A stretch of 63,969 bases of DNA, the filler included, from Chrysochromulina tobinii (lineage: Eukaryota), in the NCBI GenBank assembly GCA_001275005.1. It is 8 parts of 8 records of this genome, joined end to end, with 100 filler letters (N's around TTAATTAATTAA, not from the genome) between each part and the next. Parts side by side here need not be neighbours in the genome. Positions count along the whole stretch, not along the records: positions 38,816 to 50,870 come from JWZX01000448.1; 7 more parts are not named here. One strand, written 5' to 3'. Both the position numbers and the translations under genes were made by a program. The notes beneath the pieces were generated by a model, which made no database searches, had not been told where the DNA came from, and saw only the letters and a list, made by a program, of their open reading frames with translations. Shown in pieces: positions 33,472-50,970 of the stretch (positions are counted from its first letter, which is position 1; each line of letters starts with the position of its first letter).

Positions 33472-34184
33472 TGATTCTCGACATGGGCGAAAGGGCCACG
33501 TGCGAGCTCTATTGCCGCTGCCTCGCGCTCGCGCATGCGCAGCCGAGCGGATGCCTCACTGCGCTCCTGCGGCTCGGCGACGATGCACGGGCAGGCAAGG
33601 AGCGCAACGCCCTATCGGCGCAGCAGCTAAGCAGCGCCGTCGTGAACCGCGCCGTCGTGAGCAGCGCCGTCGTGAGCAGCGCCGCCGTGAGCGCCAAGGA
33701 CACCTCAGCGTCGCCGACACGCCGAGCGCAGATGGTCGCGGCGGCATTTCGGCGCATCGACACCAACGGCGACGGACATCTCTCGCGGGCTGAGGTCATC
33801 ATCGCCTGTCGCACCGACGCCGAGGTGCGCGCATTGCTCCTCGGACGACTCGCGGCTGCATGCAAGTGCTCACCACGGCGCCCTCCCCTCTCCCCACAGG
33901 TGCGCGCACTGCTCGGGCTTCCACAGCACATTCGGCAGGAGGACGGCACAAGAGAAGCGTTCGAGAGGGTCTTCCAGCGCTTTGATGTCGACGACTCGAA
34001 GGGGATTGAGATGGATGAGTTCATGCGCGTCTTTGCGGATGAGGGACGCATCAAGAGCCTCGAGGCGCTCGATGCGATGCTCGCACAGCCCGAGCTGACC
34101 TCGGCATCCTCGACCTCCTCCGCCCGTGCCCCATCCGTCGTGCGCCCAAGGGACCCTCCATCCATCGGCTGCAGCCAGCAGTAA
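30632..34184 (+). CDS. Large low-complexity polyQ/Pro protein with C-terminal EF-hand pair; probable intron 33825-33899; 5' end uncertain
   Basis: FRRIDTNGDGHLSRAE and FDVDDSKGIEMDEF EF-hands; polyQ tracts; removing the 75-nt intron removes a duplicated VRALL. Confidence 0.75.
33825..33899 (+). mobile_element. Family-A introner-like intron; other members at 39913-40001 and 42851-42923
   Basis: Shared 3' cassette TGCATGCA[A/T]GTGCTCACCAC[G/A]GCGCCC...pyrimidines...CAG in three introns on two contigs. Confidence 0.8.
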
Positions 34185-38280: not shown

Positions 38281-38815
38281 GATGTGCTTTGCGAGCGCGC
38301 GAGCGCATAAAGTCGTGCTTGTTTTTCGCCTTTTCCCACTGTGTTCAGTTCAGTTCAGTTCAGTTCAGTATGCTTCTGTTAGGTTGTCTGTTAACTGAAC
38401 TCCCACTGCAGTGGACTGAGCAGTGGACCTTCAAAAGGCGAGCTTGGCGTTCAAGACGAGCACAACTTTGGCGCGAGGTTAATGATATCTGCTTTTTCGC
38501 CCCTGAAAAAAACAAGTACAAAAACAGACGACGCTCATACAGCAATACTGACCCGCCCGGCGGGCGTCGCGGGCGTCGCGGACGCGTCGTCGTGGCTCCC
38601 GGCGGGGCGACCGGCCGTCCCTAAGCCCTAAGCCGTCCCGCGACGACGACCGTGCGCCGCCGTTGGGCGTTGGCGTACGTTGGCGCGGCCCGGGCGGCCG
38701 CGGCGCGCGCGCGCCNNNNNNNNNNNNNNNNNNNNNNNNNNNNNNNNNNNNNNNNNNNNTTAATTAATTAANNNNNNNNNNNNNNNNNNNNNNNNNNNNN
38801 NNNNNNNNNNNNNNN

Positions 38816-41800
38816 CGGCGGCGGCGCACGCGCGGGTGTCGGACGCGCCACCCACGACGGCGCGAGCGCGCCCGACAATACGTGGTTGCTCAACACGGCC
38901 TTCGACGGCGACGACTCGTCGCTGCAAGTGCATGCGAATCCAAAGGCGGAGACGGGCTGTCAGGGGATCTTTTACCACCCGGCGATTGCGCACTATGGCG
39001 TGGTGGCCCCCGGGCAGGCCGACCTTGGCTACTACAAGGAGGTCAAACAGGCCGCCCTGGTCTTCTCGCGGTACGTGGCGGGGGTCGCAGCCGAGCTGGG
39101 CAAAAAGTACTCGTCGCGCCCGTGGCCTCGGGCCGAGAAGGACGATCGACGGTTCCATCGCATCTCCCTCGGCTCGTGCAAGGTCGACTCGACGCGCAAG
39201 GACTATGACAAGCGGATGGGCGCGGCGGTCGAGGTGGCCGAGTGGCTGTATGAGCTTATCGGGCACGTGGAGTCGTTCACCAAAACGGCGCTCGAGGACG
39301 GCAGCGCGACGACGACGGCCGTCACATCCACCACCGAGCCGGCAGAATTGTCGTCGGCAACGGCGCTCGTGCCCGCGGGCTCGCTCGACGTGGCCGACAC
39401 GGTGCCCGTCGCGCACATCGAGTCCATTGGCGACCTCAAGCAGGCGCAGGTGGTCGTGGCGGTGGCCGAGCTTCGGACCGGATACGAGGAGGTGAAGAAG
39501 AAAGGCAAGCTCAAGGATGACAAGGAGAAGAAGGAGAAGAAGATGAAGCCGGTGGTGCTCAACGACTATTGCGATCCGATCCTGAAGCTCGTCCCAGGCG
39601 AGCTCGTCGAGGTTCGTCAAAAGGACAATACCGGCTTCGATGGCGCGTGGTACATGGCCACGATCAAGGAAGTGCTCCCCAAGGGCACCGTGCGCGTGCA
39701 GTACACGAGCGAGCGTGTGGGCGCCCAGCCGGGCGCACGTGCGCCGGCGGCCGCCGCGTCGTCGTCGTCGGCGCCGATGGAGGTCGAGGGCGGCGAGGAA
39801 GATGTGAAGCGGCTGTGGAAAGGGACCGAAGAGGACGTCAAGATCTCCAACATACGTCCCGTGCCACCCGTGCTGACCGGAGAGAACGGGGCACCTCTCG
39901 AGCTCATCCCAGGTACGTTAATTGACGTTGATTGCCACTGTGGACCTGCCTTGCATGCAAGTGCTCACCACAGCGCCCTCGCCCCTCTCGGCTCCTCGCA
40001 GAGCATGCGAGCTCATTAGGGAACTGCGAGGCGGGTGACACCCTCGAGATGCACTACCTGGGCGGCTGGTGGCAGGTCGTCATGATTGTCAACCCGGTGC
40101 TGCAGGAGAAGCCCGCAGCTGCGTCCGCGGGCGCTCAGGACGGCGCGTCCGCGGGCGATGCCGAGGGCGCGCTCAGTACGGCGGCGGATGGCGCAGTCTT
40201 GGCGGCCGAAGGCGCGGCGGGCGGCGCGGAGGGCAAGCCTGGCGACAGGCGCAAGTCACTCTCGAAGGAGGAGAGGTATGAACGTCCGATGCCGCCGCTC
40301 GAGCTGCTCCGGAATGCAAAGTTCGCCGTCAAGGCGCTCAAATTCGTCAATGAGCACGACGAGGTGCCTGCCGCGGCGCTGCGTCCTCTCTGGGTGTGGA
40401 AGCGCAAGGGTGGCAACCAGCTGACGAAGCAGGGCAAGAAGAAGCAGTCCATGGGAGGCGCTCAGGACGGCGCTCATGAGGGCGCTCACGAGGACGGCGG
40501 CGCTCCGGGCGCGCAGGACGGCGCGCACGACGGCGCTCAGGACGGCGCGCAGGACGGCGCGCACGATGGCGCTCACGACGGCGCGGCCGAGGGCAGCGGC
40601 GACCTGAAAGAGGGTGACGTGCTCGTTGGCATGTGGGGCAAGTCGCGCGGGCGTGAGGGCAAGAACTTTTTCAAGGGCGGCGTGCCGGCCTTTGTGCCTA
40701 CGCTGCGCATGGGCGAGGCGAAGGCGGTGACGCTCACCCTCAAAGAGGCGATGCTGCTGCAGGAGCAGGCGCTGATGGCGGCGCAGCAGGAGGCGCTCGC
40801 TCAGCTCGGCGCCGCCGGCTATCGCGAGTCGGTGGTCCAGGGGGAGATGGTCGAGGTGCGCGCCGGCCTCGAGTTCGGCGAAGAGTTCGAGTCCTCCCGC
40901 TGGCTGGTCAAGATTCTGCAGTGCGACCCCATCAACCGACGGTGCGAGATCGAGTACGTGGACTTTGATGACGAGGAGACTCCCGGCAAGAAGCTCACCG
41001 ATTGGGTCGATTATTGGGCGGTGCGCCCGATACCCCCGAAGGGCGTGCAATTCGGTCTGAAGACGGCCTGGCTTCGCAAGCTCACGCCGGGCTCTTGCGT
41101 CGAGGTGCTCTACGCTCTCGAAGACCCTGATGAGCCAAAGGCCGAGAGTGCGGACGACCAGGGGGGCAAGGGCTGGTGGGACGCGGACTTGATCGGCATC
41201 TATTCCGAAGAGGTGATGACCACTGATGACCAATGACTTGATCGGCATCTATTCCGAAGAGGTGATGACCACTGATGACCAATGATGACCACTGATGACC
41301 ACTGATGACCACTGATGACCACTGATGACCACTGATGGCCACTGATGACCACTGATGGCCACTGATGGTCACTGATGACCACTGATTGTGCGGGCGCTCG
41401 CTCGAGTACTGCAGGGCAATGAGGAGCCACCCGACGCGCCACCGGGCCAGTTTGCTCCGGGCACCAAGCGGCAAGGCGGCGACGGTCGCACATGGGTCGT
41501 CAAGGAGAAGGGGCAGGCGACGATCTGGTACCCCGAAGGCGTTAAGGATTGGAAGCCTAAAAAGGCAGGTGACGATGGGGTCGTGTACCGGCTCAAGATC
41601 GTGCCGCATGGCACGCTGCTCACAGTGAGCGCGGCCGAATGCATGGCCAAGATGCGGCCGTGGTGGCTCTTTGACCGTTTCGGGTACGCGTTTGGGGCCA
41701 ACGGCTGGGAGCCCACCTTCTCTCGCAAGCAGGCGAATGCGCACAACCGGGACGCTGAGAGTGAGGAGAAGCGCCTCGCGTTCAAGATTGGCGAGATTCG

Positions 41801-44260
41801 AGCCCAGGCGAGCGCGGGTCCGCCGCTCAAGGAGCTGATCGTCGAGGGGATGGCCGTCGAGGCGACGCAGTTTGAGGAGGGGCTGCTTGGCTCGTGGTTC
41901 TCGGGAGAGGTGGCTCAGGTGCGAGCTCTGATGACCTCTGATTGCCTACTTGGCTCGTGGTTCTCGGCTCCAAGGCGCTCATCAAACTGATGACCTTTGA
42001 TCAGCTCTGATGACCTCTGATTGCCTCCCTCATCAGGTGCGCCACCACGCCAAGCATGGCTCCAAGGCGCAAATCAAGTACCACGATCTGGCGGAGGAGG
42101 GCGGCAAAGGATCGCTCACCGAGTGGGTGCAACTTACCCAACTGCGCCCGCTGCCGCCGCCGCCGCCGCCGCCACGCGAGGGCCATGCGTCGTGGTTGGA
42201 TGAGTACTCAGCCGAGGATGAGTTTGCGAACACTCTCGAGCTACGGCACGGCGACGGCTGGTGGACGGTGACGCTCCGGAGCAAGGAGGTGCTCAAGGGC
42301 ACCACGTACTATCACGTGCGCTACCTGGGCGGCGGGCAGGACCACCGGGTGCTCGAGACGGCGCTCCGCCCGTTTTGGACATGGTGTCATCGCTTTCCCG
42401 GTGGCTGGCTCCGCGGCGCGCCCGCGCTCGATTCGGAGGAGGCGAAGGCGGCGCAGGTCATCCCGCTGCAGCCGGGCCAACCGCCCTATGCGGCGTCGCT
42501 GTTTGAGATTGGGTATGCGCGCATCGGGCTGACGAACCACAATGGCCTCTTGATGGCCTCTGAGTGCCTCTTGAGTGCCTCTTGATTGATGGCCTCTTGA
42601 TGGCCTCCCTCATTAGGTATGCGCGCATCGGACGCGACTCGACGCCGTACGAGGTGAAGCTCGGCGAGTGGGGGGGGCTTCTGTGGCAGCCAGCGGCCAT
42701 CATGGCGCCCAAGAGCCTCGCGTCCAAGAAGCCCAAGTCGGGCGCGGAGCTCGAAGGAGGGTACATTGAGGTGCACTGGCCGCTCGACAACGCGTGGTAC
42801 ATGGCGAGCGTGATCATGTACATGCCCGACGTGCAGAAGCACAAGATTCGGTATGCTGATGGACGGCGACCGGCCAGGTGCATGCATGTGCTCACCACGG
42901 CGCCCCCTCGCGTTTCCCCACAGGTACGTGGTGGACGGCGTGATCGAGATGCTTGATCTCGAGGTTGAGGAGTGGCGCGGTCCGGTCGCCGGCCCGAATG
43001 GCGAGCCTCCGCTCGCCGTGCCCGTCCACCACGTCTCTACCGCCGCCGTCGACTTGCCTAAAAAGGAGCGCAAGTCGGGTGGCGCACCCAAAAAGGAAGT
43101 CCTCGATGGCGCCGGCTACAGCGGCTTCAAGCTGCGCATGCGCCTCGACCATCGGCATAAGGAGGCCTTGCTCTACGATGCGGACGGCAATCTCGTCGTG
43201 CCGCCCGAGTACGAGCAGGGCAGCGCACCGGCCGCGGGCGGCGGCGCGCGCGCCTCGCTGGAGCCTCAGCTGACGCGCGAGCCCCCCGGCGTGTGGCCCG
43301 AGGTGATGACCTCTTGATGCCCTCTTGATGGCCTCTGATCACCTCTTGATCACCTCTATCACCTCCGATCACCTCTGATCACCTCTGATGACCTCCGATC
43401 ACCTCTGATGGAGCCATTGATTGCCTCCCTCATCAGGTGGTCCAGGATCAGCTGATCGAATACTCGCCCCTCGAACCGAGCGGTGCTGGCTCGTGGCGGC
43501 TGGGCATCGTGACCGGTTTCAAGAAGAAGAAGGGCAAGAGGAAGAGCGAGGTGGACGGATGGAAGGATCAGCTCGTGCGCATCTCGCCGCTGCCCCTGAT
43601 GGCCTCTTGCTGGCCTCTTGATGATCACTGAGGACGTCTGATGGCCTCCCTCATCATCAGGTGCGCATCTTGCCGCTGCCCGAACCGTTACGGGTGCCGC
43701 AGCTCGCGGCTGAGCTCGCGTCTGTTCGGGGTACTCCAAATGAGGACGCGTACGAGGTGGTGGTGCCACCTGGCTTTGTACGTGCCGTGCCGCCCGCGCC
43801 GCCGATCGGGTGGCTGGATGCCTTGCCTGAAGGGGCGACGCTCGAAGTGCGACATGCGGGTGGCTGGTTTGGAGCGGTGGCGCTCTCGCGGCGTGGAGTA
43901 GCGAGCGCGCGACGCTCGACAGTCAAGTTTGTCCTCGAGCCGAGCCCCGGCTCCGCGTTGCCGCTGCTCGGGGGAGGGCAGATTGAACGCACTGCCGGCG
44001 TGGACGACTTACGACCGTTTTGGTTGCACCAGGGCAAGCGGGATGGGTACCGGATGGGGCACGACACGTCGATTGACATCGACCAAGCGGTCCCCACAGA
44101 GGAGGTGATCTCGGCGCTCGAGATCAAGGCCGCCCTCGACAATGCCATCAACGCTGCCGCCTCTACAGAGTACATGGCCGCCACCGCTGCAGCTGCCGCC
44201 GCCGGGGCTTCCGAACCTGGTGGCGCCGACACGGCGCGTGGCGCCGGTAGTAGCAGTAGC

Positions 44261-44291
<31 letters not shown>

Positions 44292-44401
44292 GCGGCGGCG
44301 GCGGCGGCAGCGCAGCAGCTACGGCGACTGCTGAGGCGGCGGGCGCTGTGGCGGGCGCTGGCCGACGTCGCGGAATAGGCGACGTCGATGTGGAGGCAAA
44401 C
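38816..44401 (+). CDS. Multi-exon Agenet/Tudor-repeat protein, partial (exons to 39912, 40002-41212, 41415-41918, 42037-42512, 42617-42850, 42924-43302, 43437-43574, 43661-44401)
   Basis: Repeated G..VEV...GF.GAWY.A.I...V.Y......IRP.PP Agenet motifs and IEVHWPLDNAWY Tudor motif; all seven GT-AG introns keep the frame when spliced. Confidence 0.85.
41213..41414 (+). repeat. Intron filled with (TGATGACCAC)n, family B variant
   Basis: GT at 41213, CAG ending 41414, more than 10 copies of the 10-mer. Confidence 0.9.
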
Positions 44402-44607
44402 GTGAGGACCATGATAGCCTCTTGATGGCCTCTGATGGCCTCTGATGACCTCTGATGACCTCTGATGACCTCTGATGACCTCTGATGACCTCTGATGACC
44501 TCTGATGACGCCCTTGATTGCTTCCCTCATCAGGCGAGCTGCACAGGAGGCGGCCACTGATGACCTCTGATGACCTCTGATGACCTCTTGATTGCTCCCC
44601 TCATCAG
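41919..44607 (+). mobile_element. Family-B introner-like introns: 41919-42036, 42513-42616, 43303-43436, 43575-43660, 44402-44533 and an acceptor at 44607; also 45659-45742 (-) and 30473-30531 (-, truncated)
   Basis: Shared (CTGATG[A/G]CCT)n body and conserved 3' end TGAT[T/G]GCCTCCCTCATCAG across unrelated genes and contigs. Confidence 0.8.
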
Positions 44608-45159
44608 GCGAAGCGCGACGAGGAGGTGGGCCGGCTGCGCACGCAGCTGAAGCAGATCCGCGACATGCTCAAGGAGAGCCATAAGGTCCTCAAGCACCTG
44701 ATGAGCCAGGAGACGCAGCTCAAAGCGGAGCTCAAGGAGGCGCGGCGCTCGACACAGCGCGCCGACGGGCTCAACCTCGAGTACCTCAAGAACGTCGTGC
44801 TCGCGTTCTTGCTCAAGGTATACGGCGACGCGGACAACGAGGAGCACATCAAGCTCGCGCACGTGCTCGAGACGATCCTGCACTTCTCGCCTGAGGAGAA
44901 GGCGCAGGTGCGCGACAAGATCACGTACTACGAGTCCTCATGGTGGCATAGCACAGCCAATCTGCTCAAAGCGCAGACGGCCGCCGACGTGAGCGAGCGC
45001 GTCGTCGCGAGCGCACCGTCGACCGCCCCCCCTGCCGCCGAGTCGCGCGCGAGCGGTGCGAGCGCCTCCGGCACGGCTACCGGCGCCTTGCCCGCCGCCG
45101 CAGCTCCCGCAGCGTCGAGTGGGGTCTTTGGCAGCCTGTGGGGAACTCTCTTCGGCTGA
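44608..45159 (+). CDS. Terminal exon encoding coiled coil + GRIP domain (golgin-like)
   Basis: NLEYLKNVVLAFL...KLAHVLETILHFSPEEKAQV is the GRIP consensus. Confidence 0.85.
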   Translation, partial: AKRDEEVGRLRTQLKQIRDMLKESHKVLKHLMSQETQLKAELKEARRSTQRADGLNLEYLKNVVLAFLLKVYGDADNEEHIKLAHVLETILHFSPEEKAQVRDKITYYESSWWHSTANLLKAQTAADVSERVVASAPSTAPPAAESRASGASASGTATGALPAAAAPAASSGVFGSLWGTLFG

Positions 45160-45526
45160 ACGCGCATCGAGCGCCGCGGCAATGTGCCGCAAAACGCACA
45201 TACATCGCATGGTCATGGAAATCCTGCGCATACGTTTACGTAGACCCTGTCTGAGTACGTCTACTTTCGCGCGTATCGGTCGCTTGTGAGATACCGTACA
45301 TTCATAAAAATAAATGAAACTTAAATGAAAACATATATACGGTCGCGTCTGGCGGCGGACCGACCTTGACCGACCTTCTTGACGAGCCTCGAGCGCTGCC
45401 CAGGGACGCTGACCACACATACGCGACCCGACTCGGTCTCGCCTCTCGCTCGTGACCCTTACTACCTCGAGGCTCTCTGCACGTCTCCGATGACTGAATC
45501 GTCGCACGAACGGCTCTGGAGTCCTC

Positions 45527-46611
45527 CTACGATCCAATCTTGCCAAATTTGGTCTCATACTCGTCCACGCGCGCCTTGGCCTCCGCCAACTGCAGACGCA
45601 GCTCGATGAGCCCGCCAAGGTCGTTGTCGTACTTGCGCTGTAGCGCCTCGAACTTGACCTGACGAGGGAAGCCATCAGCGAGGCCATCAGCGAGGCCATC
45701 AGGGAGGATCAACCAAAACGGGAGATCTTAGGGAGATCTCACCTCCAGTTTCGTCGCGTGCTGCCCGAGCTTGCGCGTCCCGCCCCCTACCCTAGAGAGC
45801 TCCTCGCGCAGCCGCTTCGCGTCCGCGCGCGCCTCGTCCCTCTCGAAGGCGTTCTGCGCCTCGGCCATCTTCGCCTCGATCAGCTTCGTCGACAACTGCT
45901 CGAGCTCGGCGCTCGAGGCGGCGCCGCCCGGACTGGCGCCGCCTCGGCCGCCGCCGCCGCCTCGAGCCTGCTCTGCCCGCTCCGCGCGGCCGATGGCGTC
46001 CTCGAGCGAGGCGCGCAGCTGCTCGATCTCCTCCTCGTACTCCGCTGCACGCTCCTCCGCCGCTGCCGTCAAGTTCTGTGCACGCTCCTCCGCTTGGGAA
46101 GCCTGGCGCGCCGTACGAGCCGCCTCGGCGCGCAGCAGCGTCAGCTCCTCCTGTGCAGAGGCTGTAGCAGCGGGCGGCGGCGGCCTGGGCGGCCACGTTG
46201 ATGGGCGGACGTGCCTCCGGCGGCACCCACCTTGCTCGCCGCCTTCTCCAAGAGCTTGCGCACCTCTCGCGCCTCGGTCTGCGCCGACGCCTTGCCCGCC
46301 TCCGCCGCGGCCAGGTTGGCCTGCATCTTGGCGAGCGCCACCGCGTGCTCGCTCTCGAGCCCCTTGAGCTGCGCGCGCAGCTTCTGGGACTCCGCGAGCT
46401 CGGCGGCCAGCTTCGTCTTGCGCTCGGCTGCGAGCTCCTTGGCGGCACGTGCCTCGTCCCCCGATCTCCTCGCCTCCTCGCGCGCATCGTCCGCGTCGGC
46501 GCTCGCTCGGCGCGCTGCCTCCCGAGCACGTGAGAGCTCCTCCGCATCGGCAGTCGCGCGCCCACCGCCACCACGCCCGGCCTCCTCCCGTGCTGTTGAG
46601 AGCTCCGCGCC

Positions 46612-46649
<38 letters not shown>

Positions 46650-47769
46650 TCTTGGCTGCCGCCGCCGGCGCCATGGCGCTCGAAGCTGTCTTCCCGAAGG
46701 GGTTAACGCTCGAGGACAGGAACTCGTCGGCGGGCGGCGGCGCGGCCTTTTCGAGGCCCTTGCGTGCGAATGGGTTGGGTTTCGCCGCCGCTGTCGCTGC
46801 CGCCGAGGAGGCGCCGCCCGACGAAACCGACGGACGCGCCGAGGAGGCGGCCGCCGAGGAGGCGGCCGCCGAAGCTGGCACGGTGGACGGCTTGGCTGGC
46901 GGCGGCGTGGGTGCGGCAAGGGCGGCGCGCCCTCCTCCGCGCACGACGCCGGCGCCGTCATCCTCCTCCTCGTCGTCGTCGTCACCAAAGTTGTGGCGCG
47001 CCGTGCGGGAGCGACCCGCAGCGCCGACGCTCATCTGCCCCGCTCCCGCGTCGTCTTCCTCCTCATCCACAGGGTCAGGCGCCGTCGGGGGCGGCGGGCG
47101 CGCCGTCTTCCGGAACCCGGACTGGGCCTGCACCAAGACTTCCGAGAAGCCCTCGAGGTCTTGCTCGAGGGCGTGCGGCTCGCCGCTTGGCGTCTCGGAG
47201 CCCTCGGGCGGCAGGCCCGAGAGGCCGGTGAGGGCGGACGAGATGGACTGGTCGTCGTCGTCGTCGTCGCCCACGCCCGGCTTTGCCGGGCGCGCCACCA
47301 TCGACAGGTGCAGCACCACCGGGTTGCCGTCATTCGCGCGCCGTTCGAGCTGGAGCGTGAGCGGTTGCGGCTGCTCGGTCGCCACGTAATCCGCAATGTT
47401 GAGCTCGAACGAGGCGATCTCCTTGAGCTGCGTCTTGGACGTGCCGAACATGGGCTTGACGGCCAGCACGGCCACCTTGTACCGCTTGTCCGAGAAGCCC
47501 GATTTCTTGCCCGTCTTGCTCGCGAACAGCGTCGCCATGAAGGAAACCTTTTGCGCGCCCCACGAGACGTCGCCGCCCACCTCCTTCATCTCGTCCGTTA
47601 GGTCGACCGCCTTTGTCGACGCCATCTTGGGCCCTCGGCTGCACTGCACCACCAGCCCGGTCGCCGACATGTTGGGCGGAAGGCCGCTCTCGACGCACAG
47701 GTCCGAGAACTCAAAGGTGAAGCGCGACGTGGCGCGGCCCGCATGCTTGGCTTTGCCGAACAAGGGCAT
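45527..47769 (-). CDS. NT-type C2 (EEIG1/EHBP1-like) domain + coiled-coil protein (exons 47769-46231, 46150-45743, 45658-45527)
   Basis: VVQCSRGPKMAST...VSW...ATLF...K.YK...LNIADY (NT-C2); NPF motifs; GT-AG introns 46151-46230 and 45659-45742 keep the frame. Confidence 0.85.
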
Positions 47770-47990
47770 CGGGGTGCGGCGCGGCGCCGGGCCGATTGCG
47801 CGGAGGGTGCGGAGCGAACCGAGCAGCAGCTTTCTGTGCCTGTGAACCACTTCTTCGAACCTTGCTGTGGGAAAAAAGTCGAACCTTTGCTGTGGGAAAA
47901 AAGTCTAGGAGAGGGGGGCTTCTATCAATCAGCAGTCAGAATTCAGTAGCGAGTAGGGTCTAGGGACCTATACGAGTACGTCCGCTCGTC

Positions 47991-48992
47991 TCATCCGTAG
48001 TAATGATCAGTCTTGCCGGTGAACTCGGAGCGGCCGAGCCAAGGCGTTTTAGGGTGGCAATAGCATCCCTCGAGTCCGGGCTTGTCGAGCATCGCAATGG
48101 CCGCGAGGTCGTCCGCGTCCAGCGTGAGGGCGAGAACGGCCTCGAGGTTGGCGGCGATGCGGGCGGGCGTAATGGACTTGGGGATGATCGCCGTCGGTCG
48201 GGTGAGCGCCCACGCGAGGAGCACCGCCTGCGCCGTCGTGTCGTGCTTGCTCGCGATCTGCCGAATCGTCGCGTCCTGCGCCAGAGGCGGTGAGGCGTGG
48301 AAGGCTGACATCGCATTCGCCGCGCCGCCCATCGACGAATGTGCAGTCACAACGATGCCGTGCTCGGTGCAGTAGTCGAGCAACGGCTGACGCTGGTAGT
48401 ATGGGTGCGTCTCGAATTGGTTGCATGCGATGGGCTTCGTCGCCACGGCCTGCACCACCTTCAGGTCCTCGATCTCAAAGTTGGAGACGCCGATGTTCTT
48501 GACGAGACCCTCATCGACGAGCTTCTCCATCGCTGTCCACGTGGCACCAAGCGGCACGTCATCGACTTGATCCGCGGAGCTCGCCTCAACGGTGCCCGGC
48601 GTGAATGCCACAGGAAAGTGGCACAGGTACATATCGAGGTACTCCACGCCCAGCGCTTGGATAGACTCGAGCACGCCCTGCCGAACCAGCTCCGGCCGGT
48701 GAAAATTGTTCCAAAGCTTCGAGGTGAGAAAGAGCTCCTCGCGCGAGGCGAGCGTGCCATCCGCAAGGGATTCTGAGATGGCTTTGCCCACTTCAGCCTC
48801 GTTCATGTAGACCCACGCCTCATCAATGTGCTTGTATCCAGTTGCCAGCGCAGCCTTGGTGCCCTCGTACACCTCTCCTTTTTTGGAAAGCCACGTGCCA
48901 TACCCGATGGCAGGCATCGCGTCGCCAGTGCCCGGTAGCTTGAGCGTTGGCGTCGTCAGCGCGGCCGTGGCCGTTGCAAGGCAGAGGAGCAT
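47991..48992 (-). CDS. Aldo-keto reductase with N-terminal signal/targeting peptide
   Basis: MPAIGYGTW, HIDEAWVY, FLTSKLW, YLCHFP (D-Y-K-H tetrad), IGVSNF, IIPKS. Confidence 0.95.
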   Translation of the reverse strand: MLLCLATATAALTTPTLKLPGTGDAMPAIGYGTWLSKKGEVYEGTKAALATGYKHIDEAWVYMNEAEVGKAISESLADGTLASREELFLTSKLWNNFHRPELVRQGVLESIQALGVEYLDMYLCHFPVAFTPGTVEASSADQVDDVPLGATWTAMEKLVDEGLVKNIGVSNFEIEDLKVVQAVATKPIACNQFETHPYYQRQPLLDYCTEHGIVVTAHSSMGGAANAMSAFHASPPLAQDATIRQIASKHDTTAQAVLLAWALTRPTAIIPKSITPARIAANLEAVLALTLDADDLAAIAMLDKPGLEGCYCHPKTPWLGRSEFTGKTDHYYG

Positions 48993-49299
48993 CGCGGCCG
49001 AATCGGGGGGACCCATGAGAGTCTCGTGCGCGTGATCTTTCTTATGCCCAAGACGGCGCTGAAGATTGCGCATGCAAGCGACGGGGAAGGGGGGGAGGGG
49101 GGGGAGGGGATTTTGTGGAAAGGTGAGTCGTGGAAAGCAGGGCTGCTGAGGAGCATGCTGAAGCGATTCTAATGCTTCAAGATCCAGGTGTCGCCACGCT
49201 CGAGGAGGGAGGAGCTCATTGACGCCATCAATTGGGACGGCCGGCTCCTCCAGCGTGTGCAAGCAGGCGGCTTCTTCCTCGCGAGCTCGTAGATGCACA

Positions 49300-50520
49300 T
49301 GCCGCTCAGCAGCCAGAACGCGGCCGGCTCAGGTGCGTCCCAGGCTCAAGGCCTCGTGGTGTGGTTGTAAAGGCAACGTGACTCCCCACACTGAAATCTG
49401 CGTCGTCGTGAGGGTGCGAGCGGTACTCCTTGCCTTTAAAGGAGTGCTTGATGTAGTTCATCCACGCGTCAGCCCCTGGGCCCGCAGTGGGCAGGGTGGG
49501 GAATATGCGTGCGACCTCGAATGCCCAGAAAGGGACCAAGAGAACTTGCGGACTTGCGCGAGGGAGAAGTACGAGAAGGAGGGCCGGCATTCTCGTAGAC
49601 GAGGGAGTCGAGAACCTCGAGAACACATCTGTTCTCGAGTATTGGCCACCCATGGCCGTCTTGGGCGCGCTCGTCACCACGCTCTGCATCCGCCGCAGAG
49701 GATGAACCACACACGGCAGCTCCTTGCTGGGCCTGTGAAGGGCCTGCCTCGTCGACCTGGATGTCCTGGACCTCCTCGTCATCAAATTCGTCATCGTCAA
49801 GGTGTCACCACCCGCCTGGCGCTTGGCACCCCAGCCACCATCAATACTGGCAAGGAACCCTGAGTGGGGCATCGAATACACCCAGTACCCAGGGTGGACA
49901 ATGTGGATGGCGTCCATCATTGTGTCCCCCTGCCGGGTAAAGTATCCGCCAAATTTGAGAAAGAGTTTGGCGGTGCCGTAGCGGTGCCGTGCCAGGGCGG
50001 AGGAGGCGGTGGTGGTTGAAGTGGTAGGAGTGGCTGCTGCGGGGGCAACAGTGCATTAGCAGCCGCTTGCACAGCGGCGGCGGCATTGGCGGCGGCGGCG
50101 GCGGCGGCGGCACCTGCGGCTCCAGCGGCGGCCATCGCGGCATCTGCACCACCTGCAGCGGCGGCGTCGGCAGGGGCAGCAACGATGGCGGCGAGGGCAG
50201 CGGCCATCGCTGCAGCTGCAACGTTCGCAGCGGCAACAGAGGCCGCTTGGAGCTGCTGGGCGTTGGCCTGGAGGGCCTGCAGCGCGGAGCTGGAGGTGGC
50301 AACGGTGCTGGAGGTGGCAGTGGCGGCGGGGGAGGAGATGGCGACGGTGGTGCTGAGGGAGGAGGCGGTGGTGATGGTGCCGGCGAATACAGAACGTCCT
50401 CTAACTCATAGTCTGAGTGGTGTCGCCAACAATTTATAGTCGCCACACACCTGCGCCACACCTGGCCTGGTGCTCGACGAGGTGCTTGATTCCGCCGATC
50501 GCAACCGTGGGCTTGTACCA
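49300..50520 (-). pseudogene. Frameshifted, degenerate coding-like remnant, possibly from a transposable element
   Basis: Ala/Pro-rich and acidic (DDDEFDDEEVQD) coding-like segments switch frames; no recognisable domain. Confidence 0.3.
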
Positions 50521-50970
50521 TTCATAGAAGTGCATCATGATCTCGCCGCGGGCCGAGCTCACTGGCGAATGTCCACACGCCCTTCAGCGCATTTATGTAA
50601 TGAAGTTCATTTTGGACCACATAACGGGACTGTGAAACTACTTCTCGCGCTTCTATCACCGAGTGGGTGTGCATGACCCCTAGAAAAGTTTTTCTTTTGT
50701 CTCACCGGACCGTACCTAACGAGGCGGGCGACCATCGGGCGGCTAGCGAACTCCCCCTTGGCAGAGGGCGGTTCGCTTGGCACCCCCCTACGAGAAGCCC
50801 CCACAAGTATAACGGCCTATACGGTCCGGGGTTCATCAGTGTGATGACACCCGGTGACCCCTTACCCCCCNNNNNNNNNNNNNNNNNNNNNNNNNNNNNN
50901 NNNNNNNNNNNNNNTTAATTAATTAANNNNNNNNNNNNNNNNNNNNNNNNNNNNNNNNNNNNNNNNNNNN

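Follow-up and report, generated by a model that had tools for sequence, protein, structure and literature searches.

Copies of both flanking exons within a repeat-family intron of Chrysochromulina tobinii: likely footprints of a duplication-prone process that makes and enlarges introns

We describe an intron of Chrysochromulina tobinii (Eukaryota) that carries, within its own length, copies of parts of both of the exons that flank it. The intron occupies positions 41919–42036 of a 63,969-nucleotide (nt) stretch of DNA, filler included, which we refer to as the window. The window consists of 8 parts of 8 records of GenBank assembly GCA_001275005.1 joined end to end, of which positions 38,816 to 50,870 come from record JWZX01000448.1; all coordinates count along the window. 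The host gene lies on the plus strand and encodes repeated Agenet-like modules, and the intron is a member of a repeat-bearing intron family that recurs in related metagenome contigs. The exon copies are likely to be footprints of a duplication-prone process that makes and enlarges such introns. For the focal intron itself, we consider it reasonably probable that the copies record two or three rounds of local copying, one after another and guided by microhomology, within an intron of this family that was already in place, and not the birth of that intron.

The upstream-exon copy is identical to its source over 19 of 19 positions (41949–41967 against 41886–41904), and the match extends outwards to 21 of 22 (41946–41967 against 41883–41904). 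It runs directly into a copy of the downstream exon, which is identical over 13 of 13 positions (41966–41978 against 42058–42070) and extends to 18 of 20 (41966–41985 against 42058–42077). The two copies overlap by a GG dinucleotide at 41966–41967, and the fused pair is flanked by two exact 24-nt blocks of the repeat element, at 41924–41947 (block 1) and 42003–42026 (block 2). A first-pass annotation of this DNA had reported the 19-nt upstream copy, its passage through a shared GG into a copy of the downstream exon, and the position of both between two blocks of repeat, and each of these observations is borne out by the alignments. The templates of all three inserted pieces lie within about 100 nt and in direct orientation. 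Microhomology of 2 nt is present at two of the joins, namely GG where the exon copies meet and CT where block 1 passes into the upstream-exon copy, and only 0–1 nt is present at the joins GTGCG/AGCTC and insert-to-array. The further claim of the annotation, that the pieces were locally templated and joined by microhomology, stands for the local copies and for the GG and CT joins. The sequence missing between the copied exon pieces amounts to 37 nt, corresponding to 41905–41918 plus 42037–42059 of the pre-insertion sequence. The intron as a whole is bounded by a short direct repeat, which measures 9 nt (TCAGGTGCG; 41915–41923 and 42033–42041) when the preceding TCAG is counted. Its 3′ module, CTGATTGCCTCCCTCATCAG, contains CTGAT, a pyrimidine run, and AG; the CTGAT may be branch-site-like, judging from its motif. 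Coordinates of the individual features are collected in Table 1.

Resemblance by chance was assessed with 2000 dinucleotide shuffles of the intron, in which the longest match to the 150-nt flanks was 12 nt on the upstream side and 13 nt on the downstream side. Because the shuffle maxima are only 12 and 13 nt, the observed 19-mer lies beyond chance, and the 13-mer taken alone would be rare. The fused 30-mer occurs once in the window when up to 3 mismatches are allowed, with 0 occurrences expected from shuffles. We give next to no weight to the idea that the copies are coincidental, or that they form a functional element under selection, for instance a regulator of splicing. Nothing specific speaks for it beyond an 8-nt perfect inverted repeat that flanks the region, whereas the 19-mer was never attained in the shuffles. 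The copies are moreover direct and not complementary, so they would not pair with the exons they copy, and related introns hold copies of their own, unrelated exons, which argues for a mutational process and not for a conserved signal. The inverted repeat itself (41868–41875 and 41982–41989; 17 nt at 82% when extended) is positioned upstream of the source of the upstream-exon piece and downstream of the chimera, and its origin by chance is an even proposition.

The arrangement was also compared with eight public sequencing runs in the form of Logan contigs (labelled X), which are assemblies built on 31-letter words. The contigs of the DNA runs are all from short reads, and some of the runs may be the sample behind the window. 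A 705-nt contig in X1 and X7 covers 41328–42032 with 3 differing letters, and X3 and X11 match the window over 41650–42032 with 0 differing letters. In these four DNA runs one contig spans exon 1, block 1, both exon copies, and most of block 2, and a second DNA contig connects 42015–42138. No joint or indel is listed inside the focal intron for the DNA contigs of X3 and X11. The same order of pieces is thus found in short-read contigs of four DNA runs, which speaks against the annotation's own concern that the structure might be a local artefact. It is very improbable that reads mis-joined at short repeats made the chimera. The intron does lie amid very high-copy repeat sequence, and the DNA contigs of all runs break at 42015–42040; however, a single 705-nt contig passes through the whole arrangement in X1, X7, X3, and X11, the 24-nt repeats are shorter than the 31-letter assembly words, and no alternative joint is listed within the intron. 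A mis-assembly specific to the window is very unlikely.

The focal intron is a genuine, spliced intron. RNA contigs of X12, X14, and X16 connect 41914 to 42033 and skip 118 nt with GT..AG ends, a joint that is equivalent to intron 41919–42036 because 9 letters fit on either side. The contig of X13 ends at 41914 and does not bridge the focal intron. The spliced reading frame is open for 339 amino acids, and the unspliced frame reaches a stop within the intron. The Pfam Agenet domain matches the first part of exon 2 (E 4.6e-8), with domain positions 27–61 starting at residue 7 of that exon, and a weaker match lies upstream. A protein search with exon 1 returned no relatives within the length range searched.

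Table 1. Positions of the focal intron, its component pieces, and the exon segments from which they derive
Feature	Position	Strand	Remarks
Intron	41919..42036	+	118 nt, GT..AG; member of 10-mer repeat family
Source of upstream-exon piece	41883..41904	+	In exon 1; codes for part of an Agenet-like module; 19-nt exact core 41886–41904; within RNA contigs ending at 41914
Last 14 nt of exon 1, GAGAGGTGGCTCAG	41905..41918	+	Missing from internal copy
5′ splice site GTGCG	41919..41923	+	First copy of short direct repeat; second copy 42037–42041
Block 1	41924..41947	+	Exact 24-nt copy of 42003–42026; ends within CTGATTGCCT motif; without 3′ splice module
Upstream-exon copy	41946..41967	+	Exact over 41949–41967
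Downstream-exon copy	41966..41985	+	Exact over 41966–41978, 18/20 to 41985; adjoins repeat array directly
Degenerate 10-mer array, ACTGATGACCTTTGATC	41986..42002	+	
Block 2 and fixed 3′ module of family	42003..42036	+	Module CTGATTGCCTCCCTCATCAG = 42017–42036, intron end
Exon 2 start	42037..42077	+	Second GTGCG and source of downstream-exon piece (42058–42077)

The behaviour of related introns provides the context in which the focal intron is best understood. We define family loci as the metagenome-contig stretches, at least 140 in number, that carry an exact 19-nt 3′ motif, and all family counts given here rest on these listed matches. Redundancy among the metagenome loci was removed by shared 24-mers or exact flanks alone. 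Cross-locus controls were used for the counts of exon copies, and the evidence for splicing comes from the introns of the window and not from the metagenome loci. Related metagenome contigs carry the family at well over a hundred loci. The window itself has 8 matches to the 3′ motif at up to 3 mismatches, and the summed contig depth over the motif (41995–42040) is thousands of times the depth over exons, which indicates many other copies.

Members typically share a common build. A copy of the start of the downstream exon comes first (its first 12–51 nt, beginning with GT or GC) and is followed by a variable array of CTGATGACCT-like 10-mers, a fixed 3′ module ending in CATCAG, and then the exon. 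The first-pass annotation had proposed scanning the family for internal matches to exon sequence of 12 nt or more, and a count of this kind at the start of the downstream exon gives a clear excess: among terminal ends, those followed by no other family end within 150 nt, 34 of 119 have an exact copy of at least 12 nt located at the exon start, whereas 5 of 595 cross-locus controls do. A further 21 ends have offset matches, most of which are copies of the same kind that differ by a mismatch or a small indel close to the splice site. With mismatches tolerated, and with ends that share 24-mers clustered together, copies of 12 nt or more are present at 46 of 118 terminal ends, with a median of 23 and a range of 12–51. 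Searching 400 nt upstream of all 175 non-redundant 3′ ends for copies of the downstream start gives 76 with at least 10 nt (34/875 in controls) and 64 with at least 15 nt (5/875 in controls). Microhomology is in excess where the target copy meets the element: in 18 of 45 cases the overlap with another member's donor context is 4 nt or longer, compared with 10.8% of 900 control draws. A test for target copies ending in TGAT-type 4-mers was negative, with TGAT found in 1 of 46.

The inserted part ranges from about 15 nt (the 3′ module alone, in locus L006) to more than 150 nt, and the 5′ ends of relatives are variable. Units of exon copy plus element are often arranged in tandem, as in L006, L011, L017, L056, and L057, and in L037, L005, and L071 the target copies contain internal replacements or indels. 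A repeat search of 41700–42300 found no terminal inverted repeat for the focal intron. The sequence that follows the family 3′ end begins with GT in 101 of 175 ends and with GC in 36 of 175. The GC start applies equally to the duplicated intron start, which suggests that GC-AG introns are frequent in the family. At L031, L111, L105, L122, and L123 the intron-side target copy often deviates at positions 3–5 towards GTAAG or GTACG, and it looks as if the 5′ splice site was improved after duplication at those loci. L002 and L004 have the same downstream exon and 10-mer arrays that differ in length and unit order; the arrays therefore change fast between populations.

The one other intron family that could be recognised shows comparable copies. 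Its 3′ part has the form ...GCTCACCACGGCGC...CCCCACAG, or more fully ...GCATGCA.G.GCTCACCACGGCGC...CCCCACAG, and copies of at least 10 nt are present in 6 of 10 members against 2 of 100 controls, with one of the six being a mispairing by the script. Copies of this kind are found in the window at 33825–33899 (15 nt at 33825) and, in imperfect form, at 42851–42923. Locus L065 has a 47-nt copy and tandem units, and L072 and L032 are further loci of the second family.

Copies of the upstream exon also recur. The layout of the focal intron can be written as the exon-1 end with GT and following sequence, then a block ending in or near GATTGC, then a copy of the exon-1 end that usually includes the 5′ splice site, and finally the rest of the intron. 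The same layout is seen in L118, L018, L066, L106, L016, L025, L071, and others. An automated criterion for it flagged 23 of 118 terminal ends, of which about 16 were judged genuine on reading and 7 were other things; the frequency of about 16/118 is approximate, as the criterion needed reading by eye.

These family properties underlie the path that we favour for the focal intron, which is the simplest through layouts actually seen in relatives. First, the intron would have arisen with a 41-nt target duplication (GTGCG ... GGCTCCAAGGCGCAAATCAA) ahead of the array; the original duplicated target would be 42037–42077, and the ends of its copy would survive as 41919–41923 and 41966–41985. A later event of the recurrent type would have put a 24-nt copy of the intron's own block, together with a copy of the exon-1 end, right behind the 5′ splice site. 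Lastly, 37 nt between two GG dinucleotides would have been lost, either by deletion or by a polymerase skipping forward (a template switch), fusing the upstream- and downstream-exon copies and removing the duplicated 5′ splice site. The second and third steps may be one multi-switch repair or replication event. On this path the inner 16 nt of the target copy, CCACCACGCCAAGCAT, would have been replaced at a later time by 24 nt from the intron's own block, one odd letter, and 19–22 nt of the exon-1 end. We read the downstream-exon piece as a probable remnant of the original target duplication because it adjoins the array and keeps its homology as far as the array (18/20), as in 46 of 118 relatives. 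A duplication of 41 nt is within the family norm, since copies range over 12–51 nt in the same 46 of 118. At 18/20, the downstream-exon copy has also diverged further than the upstream-exon copy, at 21/22, or the block, at 24/24, and this would weakly fit an older age.

Several points weigh against this path. No intermediate allele was seen, whether with a full 41-nt target copy or with an undeleted internal copy, and the four DNA runs show the present form alone. No locus orthologous to the focal one appears among the 140 family loci listed. Given the way redundancy was removed, some of the loci that were counted may be orthologues from related strains. The path needs three events where one complex event would do, and a single multi-switch repair or replication event would yield the same sequence. 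The mismatches adjoin the joins, as error-prone synthesis in one event would give, and block 1 meets GTGCG without clear microhomology. The automated criterion for the upstream-exon layout missed the focal intron itself, with a chance GGATGGC in the 40 nt upstream. In addition, a looser test, which asked for internal direct repeats of 14 nt or more outside the element, was positive for 35 of the 118 ends and for 73 of 500 random stretches of the window. This is only weakly above background, the window being full of coding and intron repeats.

The principal rival is a single complex break repair, at the birth of the intron or in a young intron, carried out by end joining like that of polymerase theta or by template switching in replication. 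Copying would have proceeded in order through 24 nt of repeat, 19–22 nt of the upstream exon, and 13–20 nt of the downstream exon. We regard this as rather unlikely, and it is nonetheless consistent with much of the evidence. The three pieces are templated within about 100 nt and in direct orientation, the GG and CT joins each have 2 nt of microhomology, the few mismatches adjoin joins, and microhomology at element joins is family-wide. Locally templated inserts are an established result of repair by synthesis-dependent microhomology-mediated end joining, as described in the accessible text of PMC2943611 and PMC5728401. The exact 24-mer of block 1 was found in 0 of the 140 other family loci listed, and its 22-nt core in 9, so that a local template for block 1 would be modestly favoured. 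On the other side, the position and extended homology of the downstream piece are explained by the long target duplications of the family with no extra event, and the upstream-exon layout is found unfused in many relatives, so that independent origins of the parts are possible. Microhomology is also limited to 0–1 nt at two of the four joins. The proposal in the first-pass annotation that the intron was assembled at birth in one polymerase-theta-type event is not supported in that form. The family data give a simpler, stepwise origin.

Two further mechanisms were considered for the focal intron. A simple tandem duplication of the exon end and intron start was ranked lower, as it needs two further deletions. 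A lariat-junction origin of the internal copy was rejected, as the exon-1 piece sits between the block end and GT.

Other introns of the same gene show related duplications. RNA contigs skip 42512–42615, 42850–42922, and 43575–43660 in addition to the focal intron. Intron 42513–42616, which is spliced in RNA contigs, opens with an exact 15-nt copy of the following exon (42513–42527 and 42617–42631). Intron 43575–43660, also spliced in RNA contigs, opens with a 21-nt copy that matches at 20 of 21 positions (43575–43595 and 43661–43681). Three introns of the gene thus have direct duplications, of 5, 15, and 21 nt. Further upstream, an exact 49-nt tandem duplication crosses an exon/intron border (41186–41234 = 41235–41283) and comprises 27 nt of exon end and 22 nt of intron start. 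A 12-unit TGATGACCAC array follows it at 41263–41386, and RNA contigs stop at 41210–41215 and restart at 41413; the stretch 41186–41412 is probably one intron with an exon copy inside. Downstream, two family 3′ ends, at 44533 and 44607, are separated by 74 nt. A long CTGATGACCT array precedes the first of them, and RNA contigs restart at 44605. The region 44403–44607 could be one long intron, or two introns with a tiny exon between them.

The window as a whole has a GC content of approximately 0.55–0.70, and its DNA is eukaryotic. It contains 616 N, with one run appearing as X in open frames near 38760–38800 (about 38760–38810), which we took as an assembly gap. An aldo/keto reductase is encoded elsewhere in the window, and its best named matches are stramenopile transcriptomes at approximately 57–61% identity.

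The family can be compared with several known routes of intron gain. Introners are intron-generating repeat elements of Micromonas, Aureococcus, Symbiodinium, and others, as set out in the accessible text of PMC11282704 and PMC9860276 (with Worden 2009 and Huff 2016 as cited there). The same portions of these two sources describe target duplications of 3 nt in Micromonas and 3–9 bp generally, often with inverted termini. In some introners the element supplies the 3′ splice site while the 5′ splice site comes from the duplication, according to the accessible text of PMC11282704, PMC9860276, and PMC12130899, and the last of these also notes introner families of unknown mechanism. The introns described here resemble introners in that many similar introns occupy unrelated genes and in that splicing restores the reading frame, as shown for the introns of the window. 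They are unlike introners, as those accessible accounts present them, in the length of their target duplications, which are variable and run from 5 to more than 50 nt in place of being short and of fixed length. Unlike many introner families, they show no terminal inverted repeats. The 5′ end of the inserted part is variable and the 3′ module alone is constant, and tandem amplification and exon copies inside introns are frequent, which again sets them apart from introners. No intron family with long variable target duplications was found among the open-access papers searched, although the supplements of the introner surveys PMC9860276 and PMC12130899 may list such families.

Intron gain by break repair, with short direct repeats over the splice sites, has been reported for Daphnia, Drosophila, and Aspergillus (accessible text of PMC3020277; Li et al. 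2009 as cited there). In the model given in that text, foreign DNA is captured at a staggered break and stabilised by microhomology. The family agrees with this model in that its direct repeats extend over both the 5′ splice site and the beginning of the downstream exon, as GTGCG or TCAGGTGCG does at the two ends of the focal intron. It departs from the cases in the portion of the source available on two counts. In those cases each intron holds captured DNA of its own and has short repeats, whereas here the repeats are long and what is captured comes every time from the 3′ part of the same intron families. The inserts attributed to polymerase theta or synthesis-dependent microhomology-mediated end joining, as they appear in the accessible text of PMC2943611 and PMC5728401, are likewise short and copied within about 100 nt of the join. 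They share with the focal intron the presence of microhomology at some joins and the loss of original sequence, here 16 nt of the presumed target copy. The focal intron differs from such inserts in that duplication and deletion, as separate steps that each occur alone in relatives, can lead to the same picture.

Four features mark the family: target duplications vary in length, the 3′ end is constant, the 5′ end is truncated, and the 5′ join shows microhomology. Target-primed reverse transcription, the mode of insertion of long and short interspersed elements (LINEs and SINEs), leaves long variable target duplications, a constant 3′ end, variable 5′ truncation, and microhomology at the 5′ join, and in these respects the family resembles it. 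Unlike LINE and SINE insertions, members end in neither poly(A) nor any known LINE tail. Here the constant 3′ end may also have a different source, since selection for exact splicing could alone enforce it.

A transposase with fixed cuts is unfitting because of the long variable duplications, the constant 3′ end, the variable 5′ extent, and the microhomology at the 5′ join. These features would be compatible with DNA capture at staggered breaks, with template switching during replication, or with synthesis primed on excised intron RNA at its 3′ end, in the manner of target-primed reverse transcription. A tentative and broader reading, which we judge unlikely as a complete account, is that the families multiply by a process of the repair or reverse-transcription type and not by a transposase, and that the focal intron came out of the same machinery through several template switches. 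On this view an exonic DNA end, left by a nick or break, would be extended on the 3′ end of an excised intron (RNA or a copy of it), starting exactly at ...CAG. Synthesis would halt at a variable distance and rejoin by microhomology, leaving a long target duplication whose GT would serve as the new 5′ splice site. If this were true, the family would be a natural record of spliceosomal introns being copied to new sites.

We regard the focal intron as a well-preserved example of a family-wide habit, and the habit as a new variant of intron-generating repeats. Taken alone the intron is moderately interesting, and the long variable duplications of its family are more so. In the annotation of such genomes, exon copies within introns and doubled 5′ splice sites are pitfalls for gene predictors. 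The mass origin of new spliceosomal introns is an open question, for which the elements described to date are mostly like DNA transposons with short target duplications of fixed length. The family departs from that pattern in its constant 3′ module, its variable 5′ extent, its derivation of the 5′ splice site from the target duplication, and the exon pieces dragged in by frequent secondary duplications. The copying process suggested by this pattern is break repair, template switching, or reverse transcription, and the family offers hundreds of natural junctions from which the mechanism may be read.

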